Shown one piece after another: positions 24,001 to 27,000 of a stretch of 64,000 nucleotides of DNA (the stretch's first letter is position 1; every line of letters begins with the position of its first letter). Origin of the DNA: Candidatus Aenigmatarchaeota archaeon (GTDB taxonomy: Archaea; Aenigmatarchaeota; Aenigmatarchaeia; Aenigmatarchaeales; JACQIB01); assembly GCA_043799675.1 (NCBI GenBank), contig JAZDNN010000024.1, forward strand, positions 32,412 through 96,411, given 5' to 3'. Position numbers: made by a program.

Positions 24001-27000
24001 CATCAACGCACGTCCTGGTCTGGACTCCGGAGACCGAGCATGCGCTCCATGCGCCGCACTGCCAGTCCGGCGTGCATACAGCTGGTGTCGGTTCGGGTTC
24101 AATCGGCCTTACAATAAACTGCATGACGAATACCAACGCAAGCGCGATGAGCATCAGGGACAATATCAGGATGACGGCGTTTTTGCTTCCGAATTTCAGC
24201 ACAACTGAAATGGTGATTATCGCTTAATAAAGAAAAATTTCGGCTTTGCTATCTGATTGCAGGCGCTTAGCTGCGCTCTCCGGAAACCGTTCCGGTAACT
24301 GAAAACCCGTTACTGCCGCTATCCAAGTATGTCATCGTTACAGCGAGGGTATATGGATCTCCAACGTGGCCATTCACTCCCATGGTATTTGTGCCTGTCA
24401 GCCATACCCTTTCCAGAGGGAATAAGTTCATGGGCACGTTCATGGATGGTATTTGTAAACCGTTGACGCTTACAGACGTAATGCTGATGGTATCGCCAAC
24501 CCTGTCCTCCACCCACAATTTTAACGTACCATTTGCAGCGTAATCGACATCCAGCACACCTATGTTCGTGAAGCCGCTGATTGTCTTGGGAGTGCAGGTC
24601 TGTGATTCCTGCGGTTTGCTTGTCGTTGTCCCGCAAGAATTCGTGTCAATGCATGTTCGCATCCGCGTTCCGCCGGCACCGCACGCGGACCATGCATCGC
24701 ATTGCCAGTTAGGAGTACATGTACATGGTTGTGTTTCCAAAGGCCTGTCGCTAAACAGATTGCATCTGTTTGCATCCGTGCATACCCTGCTCTGATTTCC
24801 CGAATTACTGCAATTGGTCCATGCACTGCACTGCCAGTCAGGCACGCAGGGTGGCGTGCAGAACTGGGTTTCAACAGGCTTGTTATAATTCACGCTGCAG
24901 GAATTCGCATCTATGCATGTCCTTGTCTGCGTTCCTGAAGCGGAGCATGCATTCCACGCCCCGCACTGCCAATCAGGCGTGCATACTGGGGGCATCAGAG
25001 GCCCACTTGGCTTAATCAGGGATTGCACAATATACAACGATGCAAGCGCAACGATTATTACAGCCAGAACCAAGATAATGACGTTTTTCTTTTCGGATTT
25101 AGGCACACCTATTTTCTTTTCTGACTTAGGCACACCAAAAATGACTATTACCGCTTAATAAAGATGAATTTTGGCTTTGCTGCTTGATTTATTAGCGGCG
25201 CAAACGATTAGCTGGCATGGAGCAGGAACCTGAAAAGCAGACAGGCAGTCTGCCGAAGGAAATCAAGAAAATCAGCGAGGTCGTCTGGGAACTGCCCACC
25301 AGCTACAAGAAAGGCATGCGCGTGCCGGCAAGAATATATGCGACCAAGAAGCTGCTCGATGCGATGGACGCGGGAGTGTTCGAGCAGGTCACCAACGTCG
25401 CGACCCTGCCGGGAATCGTCAAGCATGCGTTCTGTATGCCGGATGGGCACTGGGGTATGGGTCAAGTCGCGGCTTGATTCACTCAAATATGGGTTCCCAA
25501 TCGGCGGCGTGGCTGCATTCGACCCGAAGGTCGGCGTGATCAGCCCGGGCGGCATCGGGTTCGACATCAACTGCGGCATGAGGTTCGTCACTACCAACCT
25601 TACTGTCAAGGACGTCAAACCCAAGCTGAAAGAACTGGTGGATATCCTGTTCAGGACGGTTCCCGCGGGCGTGGGCGGGGAAGGGTTTGTAAAATTAAGC
25701 CGCAGCCAATTCGACGAAATAATGGTCCAAGGGGCCAATTGGGTCATCGAGCACGGCTACGGTTGGAAAGAGGACACGGAAAGAATAGAGGAGTACGGCT
25801 GCATCAAAGGTGCTGATCCGTCAAAGGTCAGCGACAAGGCAAGGACCAGAGGCATCACGCAGATGGGGACGCTCGGCTCAGGGAACCATTACCTGGAAAT
25901 CCAGACTGCCGAGAAAATTTTCCTTCCCGAAGTCGCAGAGGCATTCGGCGTGAACGAACAGGGGCAGATAGGGGTGATGGTGCACTGCGGCTCGAGGGGG
26001 TTCGGCCACCAAATCGGAACGGATTATCTCAGGATATTCGACATGGCAATGAAGAAGTACAACATCACGGTGCCTGACAGGGAGCTTGCCTGTGCGCCTT
26101 TTGCGAGCCAGGAAGGACAGGATTATTATCACGCGATGGCCTGCGCGGCAAACATGGCTTTTGCCAACAGGCAGGTGATTTTGCACAGGATACGCGAGGC
26201 TTTTGCAAAGGTGTTCAGGAAATCCCCCGAAGACATGGAAATGCACCTGGTGTACGATGTCGCGCACAACGTGGCCAAGGTGGAGAAACACCTGGTCGAC
26301 GGTCATGAAAAGGAACTGGTGATGCACCGGAAGGGGAGCACGCGCTGCTTCGGTCCGGGTAGGCCGGAGATTCCTGAAGCTTACCGCAAGGTCGGCCAGC
26401 CGGTGATTGTGGGCGGCAGCATGGAAACGGGCAGCTTTTTGTGCGTGGGCACGGACAAGGCTCTGACAGAAACATGGGGAAGCACCATGCACGGCGCGGG
26501 CAGAACCATGAGCAGGACTTCAGCGAGGAACCAGGGCTCGGGCTTGGCGTTGCAGAAGAAGATGGCCAAGGAAGGGATACTGGTGGAAGCCACGAGCATG
26601 AGCGGGCTTGCAGAGGAAGCGGGCTTTGCCTACAAGGACCTGAACGAAGTGGTCGAGACCATGGAAATCGCGGGCGTGAGCAGGAAGGTCGTTCTGCTGA
26701 GGCCTTTGGGTAATATTAAAGGCACCGCCCGGGCCTCATACAGCCTTTTAGCTTTCCCCATACTTGTCATGGTCTTGGCCTTGATTTCGTCCCTTATCTG
26801 AACGATAAGCGGTTCGACCTGTTTCCACCTCGTGATGTTCTTGCCGATTATTTCGAGAATCAATTCCTTTTTGGCCGTTTTCTCGGGATGCCTCAACGGC
26901 AGCAATTCGAGCATCCGACGGACATCGGCCTTCCTGAAGATTTCTAAGGCGAAATAATCCTTGCTGTATCTTATACTGACCCCATGAGTGTCTCTGCCGT

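Follow-up and report, generated by a model that had tools for sequence, protein, structure and literature searches.

The genes for the RNA ligase RtcB and for elongation factor EF-2 are each interrupted in this genome by a 31-nt insert, and these inserts are very probably archaeal bulge-helix-bulge (BHB) introns that would be excised from pre-mRNA. This reading is supported by the geometry of the inserts, their exact boundaries, the pattern of their conservation, the existence of intron-less alleles and the presence of the enzymes required. In vivo, cleavage and ligation would be expected to follow the established chemistry of the tRNA splicing endonuclease (EndA) and of RtcB. The genome is a metagenome-assembled genome (MAG), 83% complete.

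BHB inserts in RtcB and EF-2

The RtcB gene of the window (the whole 64,000-nucleotide stretch of DNA analysed here) occupies 25217-26801 on the plus strand and is split by a 31-nt insert whose excision restores HWG|YGFPIGG. An open reading frame at 25217-25477 reads to ...MPDGHWG and then runs into a TGA, and the frame encoding YGFPIGG... begins at 25488. When both pieces were compared with the Pfam RtcB profile, the first matched positions 1-27 and the second positions 25-426 (E 4e-157); therefore, nothing is absent except what the insert displaces. The features of this locus, and of the EF-2 insert on a second contig (C2), are as follows.

22868..23359, plus strand: Archease, the RtcB cofactor, 1.9 kb upstream of RtcB (Pfam PF01951, E 7e-39)
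25217..25456, plus strand: RtcB exon 1, 80 codons ending in ...MPDGHWG (open reading frame and translation; Pfam RtcB 1-27)
25451..25454, plus strand: H5, the exon strand TGGG of the 4-bp central helix, pairing with 25482-25485 (TA, GC, GT, GC)
25455..25457, plus strand: 5' bulge GTA, with a cut predicted after 25456 (scripted BHB rule)
25457..25487, plus strand: 31-nt putative intron, which in the frame of exon 1 reaches a TGA at 25475-25477
25458..25481, plus strand: inner hairpin h', 10 bp (25458-67 with 25472-81), loop CGCG, present in the ViennaRNA minimum free energy (MFE) structure
25482..25485, plus strand: H3, the intron strand CTCA of the central helix (pair list)
25486..25488, plus strand: 3' bulge AAT, with a cut predicted after 25487 (scripted BHB rule)
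25488..26723, plus strand: conserved part of RtcB exon 2, from YGFPIGG... to ...LGNIKG (Pfam RtcB 25-426)
26724..26801, plus strand: 25-codon tail and stop, with no counterpart in relatives; the usual stop after ...KG is missing
C2 5630-5660, minus strand: 31-nt insert in EF-2, with helix TCGC/GCGA, bulges ATT and AAA, and a 10-bp hairpin

The TGGG/CTCA helix of RtcB includes one G-U pair. Cuts after the second base of each bulge join GGT to TAT in RtcB (HWG|YGF), and the same cuts in EF-2 give GIVSH|IHHGKT. The survey's finding that each gene is broken by a 31-nt BHB insert, with cuts that restore the motif, was thus reproduced at both positions, as were the 4-bp helices and the 3-nt bulges; the inner hairpin, claimed to be 11 bp, measured 10 bp in both genes.

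At the RtcB site, the BHB-constrained fold had an energy of -26.9 kcal/mol, compared with -27.4 kcal/mol for the MFE structure, and at the EF-2 site the helix, the 5' bulge and the hairpin were already present in the unconstrained MFE structure. The outer exon-exon helix adjoining the bulges, which had been described as weak in both genes, indeed amounted to 0 bp in RtcB and 1 bp in EF-2; a distal exon-exon helix was present in the constrained fold. Lacking an outer helix beside the bulges, the motif takes the relaxed HBh' form rather than the strict hBHBh' form. Its cleavage would require a broad-specificity EndA, a type marked by a specificity loop that carries a conserved Lys.

We considered whether the two genes might instead be inactivated or decaying, with the inserts being small palindromic (MITE-like) mobile elements that are never removed from RNA. 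The inserts are hairpins, the genome is a reduced MAG, and a 7-nt direct repeat, TATGGGT, occurs in RtcB at 25456 and 25488, its copies lying 32 nt apart. Moreover, whereas a stop directly follows KG in 12 of 12 RtcB relatives, this stop is lost here, which could be a hint of decay; when a BHB at the 3' end of RtcB that would restore the stop was sought, none was convincing, and the tail is not explained in that way. However, a target-site duplication does not fit the locus, since removal of the insert together with one repeat (32 nt) leaves a frameshift and the frame returns only with 31 nt, and the repeat does not occur in the inserts of three relatives (G031, G016 and G034). Both genes are also intact and conserved outside the insert, without stops: RtcB exon 2 was 77% identical over 410 aa to the uninterrupted gene of another relative (G037), and EF-2 was up to 86% identical over 300 aa. 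RtcB is, in addition, present as a single copy, and splicing is required for 15 of the 16 tRNA genes detectable in the genome; neither decay nor a MITE-like element explains a helix between exon and intron that shows covariation (see below). This alternative is accordingly considered improbable.

Compact BHB motifs as such were not enriched in the genome (66 matches, compared with 40-65 in 10 block shuffles). What exceeds chance is the coincidence of a BHB with the exact boundaries, since only 1-5 combinations of position and length per insert restore the peptide. In a genome-wide scan for further mRNA introns, an open-frame criterion was uninformative at 54% GC. The scan gave 28 filtered BHB candidates, from which 9 were chosen by eye, including the EF-2 intron as a control, and their 18 flanks were compared with Pfam. 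None of the 8 new candidates had the same Pfam family on both flanks, so that, besides RtcB and EF-2, no examined candidate was confirmed as a protein-gene intron in this genome. A motif match at C2 1215-1241 was rejected because it lies just upstream of the S10 start, outside the reading frame.

Intron-less alleles and inserts in other genomes

Natural intron-less DNA alleles of both genes were found, and they show exactly the predicted junction. For EF-2, contigs C8 and C2 of the same bin overlap at the end of C8; their flanks are identical, but C8 lacks the 31 nt and encodes GIVSH-IHHGKT directly. For RtcB, matching sequence was found in seven DNA runs, where it amounted to small shares, and in no RNA run. 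Four of the DNA runs were compared with the stretch, and joints that jump 73-805 nt, being from distant relatives, were disregarded; a 280-nt DNA contig of another metagenome (run X5) joined 25455 to 25487 and skipped 31 nt. The insert was kept in DNA contigs from two other studies, with 0 gaps in run X4 and with small indels in run X1.

These contigs bear on two further explanations. That the insert is an assembly or sequencing artefact might be suspected from the metagenomic origin of the genome and from the overlap of C2 and C8 as a collapsed bubble, but this idea is effectively refuted by the independent X4 and X1 contigs. Inserts of differing sequence in RtcB or EF-2 of 11 of the 42 genomes of the order, and RtcB inserts in 15 further MAGs, also speak against it. 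Alternatively, the insert could be removed from RNA by a route other than EndA and RtcB, or at the level of DNA, for which one might cite the missing outer helix, the imperfect central helices of some family members and the intron-less DNA alleles themselves. Yet in most cases the exact junction follows from the cut rule that defines EndA substrates, a self-splicing ribozyme would not fit into 28-35 nt, and the many substitutions that separate intron-less from intron-bearing alleles make the former look like other strains and not like excision products. We regard removal by such a route as very unlikely.

Recurrence across the order was assessed in the set of 42 genomes by listing, for each insert, every combination of position and length that restores the peptide, and then applying the BHB rule. 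Eighteen inserts were tested, 9 in RtcB and 9 in EF-2. The strict cut rule (4/4-bp helix, 3-nt bulges and a 6-12-bp hairpin) was satisfied by 15 of the 18, always by exactly one of the 1-5 admissible combinations; the exceptions were RtcB in G025 and G024 (helix 2/4) and EF-2 in G003 (3/4). For the RtcB insert of G025 and G024, the sole well-paired register was rejected, as it leads to a frameshift or to a product without the Tyr. The earlier list of relatives with inserts was incomplete: it lacked RtcB in G016, G015, G025, G024 and at a first site in G034, EF-2 in G016 and G003, and the inteins described below.

The distribution of the inserts was sporadic. The RtcB site was uninterrupted in 22 of the 26 loci of the order with both flanks (4 more loci were not assessable), and the EF-2 P-loop in 27 of 34 loci. 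Each gene has several insert sites, and a single gene may carry as many as two introns, or an intron together with an intein. Insert lengths ranged from 28 to 35 nt overall and from 30 to 33 nt inside one family, with 32 nt in G024 and 33 nt in its congener G023, and most inserts hold in-frame stops; lengths that differ modulo 3, together with these stops, indicate that the inserts are not translated. When the EF-2 site A intron of this genome (G000) was compared with that of G008, three double compensatory changes were found in the hairpin. Moreover, in the family inserted at DGH^WG, the third, synonymous position of the Gly codon, which is T or C, co-varied with the intron base paired to it (A or G). 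These compensatory changes and the covariation between exon and intron point to selection on pairing.

The same data bear on whether ribosomes might bypass the insert, by translational hopping or by frameshifting. In the known hopping systems, phage T4 gene 60 and the yeast mitochondrial byps, matching take-off and landing codons flank the gap. The short inserts here do contain a hairpin, and a stop follows soon after the take-off point. Nevertheless, the two codons differ in both genes (GGT/AAA in RtcB and CAT/AAA in EF-2), hopping does not need the 4-bp exon-intron helix and two 3-nt bulges found in 15 of 18 inserts, and a single frameshift is unable to skip 28-35 nt with stops. There is thus little reason to expect that bypass accounts for the inserts.

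In a wider survey, 15 of the 79 RtcB loci that were assessable genome-wide had inserts of 30-33 nt in DGH^W^G^Y, 13 of them in MAGs titled Woesearchaeota, Nanoarchaeota, Nanoarchaeia or Aenigmatarchaeota. The central helix was fully paired (4/4) in 9 of these 15 inserts, and a G.A mismatch occupied one position of the helix in 6 of the 15. Inteins (PF14890) were found at GFDIN|C of RtcB in G029 and G032 and at HHGK|T of EF-2 in G034 and G015, at positions 1-13 nt from the mini-intron sites. LAGLIDADG inteins thus sit in the same RtcB and EF-2 motifs as the mini-introns but differ from them in size (about 490 aa), in being removed at the protein level and in keeping the frame open. The mini-inserts themselves, at 28-35 nt and mostly with stops, contain no in-frame Hint/intein splicing domain.

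Splicing enzymes and proposed mechanism

Two adjacent EndA genes are present on contig C10, each with the N-terminal and catalytic domains (PF02778 and PF01974); the 209-aa subunit has a His that the 170-aa subunit lacks. Only 16 tRNA matches were obtained with Rfam, of which 15 measured 85-161 nt and are interrupted; the many doubtful tRNA calls given by aragorn at low stringency were left aside. The genome's own tRNA introns, such as those on C38 and C41, which are 28-29 nt long and form 9-bp hairpins, share the size range of the mRNA inserts. The window also holds a 23S rRNA gene that still contains a homing endonuclease ORF.

In the proposed mechanism, 4 bases at the end of exon 1 of the transcript would pair with 4 bases near the 3' end of the intron, and the intron interior would fold into a hairpin of 9-10 bp. 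The splice sites would then lie in 3-nt bulges on opposite strands, flanking the 4-bp helix on either side. EndA, presumably formed from the two subunits, would cut after the second bulge base on each strand, and RtcB with Archease would join the exons, yielding mRNAs for intact RtcB and intact EF-2. That the inserts are mRNA introns of this type, as had been proposed, is supported by the boundaries, the intron-less alleles, the covariation, the modulo-3 lengths and the presence of EndA, Archease and RtcB. The self-referential loop suggested for RtcB, in which the ligase must splice its own message, follows logically from this reading but is less special than it appeared, because with 15 of 16 detectable tRNA genes interrupted as well, RtcB production already depends on RtcB.

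In their behaviour, the introns resemble selfish or neutral elements, with sporadic gain and loss and with clustering at the most conserved motifs beside intein sites. They might conceivably also serve regulation, by coupling the output of RtcB and EF-2 to splicing capacity. Tentatively, and with more doubt than confidence, we suggest that BHB mini-introns are a widespread selfish class in protein genes of small-genome (DPANN-type) archaea, that they target the same ultra-conserved sites as LAGLIDADG inteins, and that RtcB and EF-2 output would thereby depend on tRNA-splicing capacity. On this view, they could be what is left of mobile BHB introns after the loss of a homing endonuclease, or they may persist by breaking the recognition site of an intein or homing endonuclease, thereby shielding the allele from invasion.

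Relation to known introns and significance

The best precedent is the BHB intron in cbf5 pre-mRNA of Crenarchaeota, for which the published accounts describe splicing, sporadic presence and a proposed loss via an intron-less copy (Watanabe 2002; Yokobori 2009, PMC2738675). As in RtcB and EF-2, a BHB lies in a protein gene, its removal is needed for a functional product, and its presence among relatives is sporadic. Unlike cbf5, the present cases concern RtcB and EF-2 in a small-genome order and in the MAGs of the four titles given above, they are known here from DNA alone, they occupy several sites per gene within catalytic motifs, and the pathway's own ligase is the product of one of the host genes. 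The claim that archaeal mRNA introns are known only in cbf5 of Crenarchaeota was almost correct: in Haloferax volcanii, the 5' UTR of HVO_1309 has been shown experimentally to contain a BHB intron (PMC7714728). There, as proposed here, an mRNA serves as a substrate of the splicing endonuclease, but in a UTR rather than in a reading frame. In these sources (PMC7714728, PMC2738675, PMC5829648), the confirmed archaeal mRNA introns are cbf5 in Crenarchaeota and this one 5'-UTR case.

Non-canonical tRNA introns with relaxed HBh' motifs are described as being cut by EndA of the (alpha-beta)2, epsilon2 or L3-loop types (PMC5829648). They share with the present inserts the central helix, the bulges, the inner helix and the weak outer helix, and a two-subunit EndA is encoded here; the host here is an mRNA, so that the exon sequence is also under coding constraint. 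A further comparison is offered by eukaryotes, in which Ire1 cuts the HAC1/XBP1 mRNA at stem-loops and a tRNA ligase, in animals RTCB, rejoins it, with a stress-regulated change of frame. Non-spliceosomal cutting followed by sealing with a tRNA ligase is common to both, but the nuclease is Ire1 rather than EndA/TSEN and the introns are not homologous.

The intron reading gives concrete predictions that are cheap to test, concerning the exact positions of the cuts, circular RNAs of 31 nt and peptides across the junctions. That introns and inteins cluster within about 13 nt of each other likewise suggests a connection between two kinds of selfish element that can be tested. Gene callers will treat genes of this sort as split or frameshifted, so that the gene content of these genomes is under-called. 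If the reading is true, the confirmed cases would be joined by endonuclease-type introns that lie within the coding frames of two essential genes, one of them encoding the ligase of the splicing pathway, and such introns would recur in many uncultured small-genome archaea. tRNA-type splicing would then be a general mRNA-processing route in some archaea, which would bear on the origin of splicing of the eukaryotic HAC1/XBP1 type.

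Layout of the RtcB and EF-2 inserts

The gene for the RNA ligase RtcB lies in the window in two reading frames, and the gene for elongation factor EF-2 is interrupted on contig C2 of the same genome (G000).

25217-26801, plus strand: RtcB gene in two frames, from the ORF reading
25457-25487: RtcB insert; central helix TGGG/CTCA, bulges GTA and AAT, inner hairpin of 10 bp, loop CGCG, product HWG|YGFPIGG
C2, 5630-5660, minus strand: EF-2 insert, from the script with the canonical rule; central helix TCGC/GCGA, bulges ATT and AAA, inner hairpin of 10 bp, loop TGCG, product GIVSH|IHHGKT

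The first RtcB ORF ended with ...CMPDGHWG, followed by MGQVAA and a stop, and the second frame started at 25488 (YGFPIGGVAAFD...) and was continuous to the family's end. Because the Pfam RtcB profile matched the first piece at positions 1-27 and the second at positions 25-426, the pieces jointly covered positions 1-426; RtcB is thus complete with 31 extra nt (25457-25487), and no part is missing. The canonical rule for bulge-helix-bulge (BHB) motifs, the substrates of the tRNA splicing endonuclease EndA, specified a helix of 4 bp in which a single G-U pair was allowed, a 3-nt bulge per strand, an inner helix beginning directly after the bulge, and cuts after the second bulge base. A script applying this rule recovered both inserts. 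The survey's finding that 31-nt inserts interrupt RtcB and EF-2 is borne out.

When the RtcB site was folded, the BHB-constrained structure reached -26.9 compared with -27.4 for the minimum free energy (MFE) structure, a gap of 0.5 kcal/mol, and a distal exon-exon helix was still possible under the constraint. For EF-2, folding without the constraint already gave an MFE structure with hairpin, helix and 5' bulge. An outer helix directly adjoining the bulges is lacking, with 0 bp in RtcB and 1 bp in EF-2, and the motif therefore corresponds to the relaxed HBh' form.

The compact motif (8 bp or more in the hairpin, no more than 10 in the loop, length 20-45) was not beyond chance genome-wide: 66 matches occurred in the 749-kb genome, both strands counted, compared with 40-65 in ten block shuffles. 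For each insert, all pairs of position and length restoring the conserved peptide (1-5 pairs) were enumerated, and the BHB was then checked. The signal beyond chance is the coincidence of a BHB with the sole boundaries that repair the protein.

Three other features of the window were recorded. RtcB has no stop after ...KG, where 12 of 12 relatives have one; the extension (26721-26801) comprises 25 mostly hydrophobic codons and runs into the convergent ORF 26630-27865 at that ORF's 3' end. A BHB accounting for this extension was sought, and no convincing one was found. On the minus strand, a 288-aa ORF (24267-25133) with four Cys-rich repeats (C-T-P-x-W-Q-C-x-A-W-x-x-C...) gave no Pfam match. 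At 54078-54108 (plus strand), a 31-nt BHB-like candidate with a 7-bp hairpin separates two open stretches, neither of which gave a Pfam match.

Distribution and covariation of the inserts

The survey had found 10 of 11 inserts to be strict BHBs; this held in substance and was widened to 15 of the 18 inserts tested, with inserts in 11 of the 42 genomes of the order.

Inserts in genomes of the order (G000, source genome; others, relatives)
RtcB site 1, HxG^YGF, strict: G000 (31 nt), G031 (28 nt), G016 (31 nt), G034 (30 nt; in frame, without a stop)
RtcB site 1, non-strict: G025 and G024 (33 nt, one genus); helix 2/4 paired, 8-bp hairpin
RtcB site 2, GIG[F/Y]D^INCG, 3/3 strict: G031 (35 nt), G015 (30 nt), G034 (32 nt)
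EF-2 site A, SH^IHH, identical position and same TCGC/GCGA helix: G000 (31 nt), G008 (31 nt), G034 (32 nt)
EF-2, one base downstream of site A: G024 (32 nt), G023 (33 nt)
EF-2, HHG^KTT: G019 (33 nt)
EF-2, HHGK^TT: G008 (30 nt)
EF-2, DTPGHVD^FGAD: G016 (29 nt)
The eight EF-2 inserts in the five rows above: 8/8 strict
EF-2, TWIDE^QERE, non-strict: G003 (32 nt); helix 3/4

The RtcB site was uninterrupted in 22 of the 26 order loci with both flanks, among them the most similar gene (G037, 77% identity); four more loci were not assessable. The EF-2 P-loop was uninterrupted in 27 of 34 loci. In the 33-nt RtcB inserts of G025 (locus L008, 1465-1497) and G024 (locus L075), the central helix has G.A at each end, and the best-paired register gives a frameshift or a product without Tyr; the substrate may be non-canonical, or the gene may be dead. 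In RtcB of G005 (L074, contig C35), the frame changes at a gap where query residues 73-104 are missing; the cause may be a deletion, an insert of larger size or breakage of the gene.

Among 80 related RtcB loci from species-representative genomes, 64 were uninterrupted at DGHWGYGF, one had too short a flank to be assessed, and 15 carried inserts of 30-33 nt. Six of the 15 lay at HWG^Y, where the helix was GGGG/CCCT and the hairpin had 9-10 bp, and two fell within the Trp codon (CCAT/GTGG). The other seven lay at DGH^WG: in one the helix paired 4/4 and the hairpin had a single mismatch, and six showed G.A at one position of the helix. Thirteen of the insert-bearing records were titled Woesearchaeota, Nanoarchaeota, Nanoarchaeia or Aenigmatarchaeota, and one (L118) 'uncultured Methanosarcinales archaeon'. 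No inserts were found in surveyed records titled bacteria, Methanoperedens or Halobacteria, or in those titled Thaumarchaeota, Nitrososphaerota or Nitrososphaerales.

At EF-2 site A, hairpin pairs 1, 3 and 5 were altered on both sides between G000 and G008 (GC to AT, TA to CG, and CG to TA). In the HWG^Y family of the wider survey, pair 3 was GC, GT or AT; in the DGH^WG family, the exon Gly codon was GGT or GGC, which are synonymous, and its third base paired with intron A or G accordingly. Since insert lengths vary modulo 3 (32 vs 33 nt between congeners, 30-33 nt within families) and most inserts contain stops, they are not read as protein. As judged from these sequences, selection on the inserts appears to be on pairing, not on coding.

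Intron-less alleles in DNA

Contig C8 of the source genome ends in 394 nt that overlap the start of C2 on the reverse strand.

C8:3171-3564 against C2 (reverse) 1-443: co-assembled haplotypes of the EF-2 start region, from the overlap alignment

The overlap was identical over about 135 nt at one end and 62 nt at the other, with a diverged patch between them. There, the 31 nt are missing from C8, and its reading ...GIVSH-IHHGKT... is exactly the predicted junction; its Ser codon is AGC vs TCG, the latter being the exon strand of the helix. The patch also contains an 18-nt indel in the leader. Identical flanks around a diverged patch with an indel and an intron difference suggest recombination between strains.

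For RtcB, DNA contigs from sequencing runs of other metagenomes were compared with the window. The X4 contig covered 25369-25527 with the insert present, 0 gaps and 7 differences, and the X1 contig also contained the insert, with small indels. In X5, a 280-nt contig ran from 25455 straight to 25487 and left out 31 nt; its two flanks measured 206 and 72 nt. An assembly artefact is ruled out by the intron-bearing (X4, X1) and intron-less (X5, C8) DNA contigs, and the insert is a precise presence/absence polymorphism among close relatives.

Boundaries, alleles and covariation thus support, at the level of sequence, the survey's reading of the RtcB and EF-2 inserts as BHB introns in mRNA. Full-text searches of the literature outside subscription journals turned up no description of BHB introns in the mRNAs of RtcB or EF-2, nor in DPANN protein genes. 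According to passages of PMC7714728, no BHB mRNA intron other than that of cbf5 had been reported until that paper, which adds a Haloferax 5'-UTR BHB intron; passages of PMC2738675 treat BHB mRNA introns outside cbf5 as predictions only.

Inteins, splicing machinery and RtcB dependence

RtcB of G029 and G032 carries an intein of ~490 aa (PF14890) between GFDIN and C, at a distance of 6-10 nt from the introns of site 2; G029 also has LAGLIDADG_3. In EF-2 of G034 and G015, an intein lies between HHGK and T, 1-13 nt from four intron positions, and G034 holds intron and intein together, 15 nt apart. All seven intron sites fall in catalytic motifs, though tblastn was able to show breaks anywhere in RtcB or EF-2. 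Such site sharing between introns and inteins is the pattern that would be expected of homing elements, and the shared sites in catalytic motifs form the basis for a speculative reading, in which the BHB mini-introns are elements targeting the same sites as inteins.

Other putative mobile elements lie in the window, including a minus-strand cluster (26630-29379) abutting the RtcB 3' end.

29203-29379, minus strand: RT-16 RNA (Rfam)
27921-28997, minus strand: reverse transcriptase (RVT_1 match)
26630-27865, minus strand: 411-aa protein with LAGLIDADG_3 and a sub-threshold HTH match
62079-64000, minus strand: 3' part of 23S rRNA
63256-63888, minus strand: LAGLIDADG ORF inside the 23S rRNA 3' part

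The cluster may represent a cassette that is mobile or retron-like. The 23S rRNA part holds only 554 model positions within 1922 nt, which together with the LAGLIDADG ORF indicates at least one rRNA intron with a homing endonuclease.

Contig C10 encodes two adjacent EndA genes on the same strand (209 and 170 aa), each with N-terminal and catalytic domains; the catalytic-region His is present only in the 209-aa subunit. Passages of PMC5829648 associate a two-subunit EndA arrangement with relaxed-motif cleavage, and the EndA genes of G000 have an arrangement of this kind. The genome has one RtcB gene, with an Archease gene 1.9 kb upstream. Sixteen tRNA genes exceeded the Rfam threshold in this 83% complete genome, 15 of them 85-161 nt long, and aragorn reported four tRNA genes without introns; some tRNA introns are equally compact (28-29 nt, 9-bp hairpins). 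Most tRNA genes of G000 must be heavily interrupted, split or permuted.

The survey had proposed that RtcB, having to splice its own message, is caught in a self-referential loop. The loop follows logically, but it is less special than proposed: nearly all detectable tRNAs need splicing, and RtcB synthesis therefore already depends on RtcB. The RtcB intron would thus add a second, more direct loop and not create the dependence.
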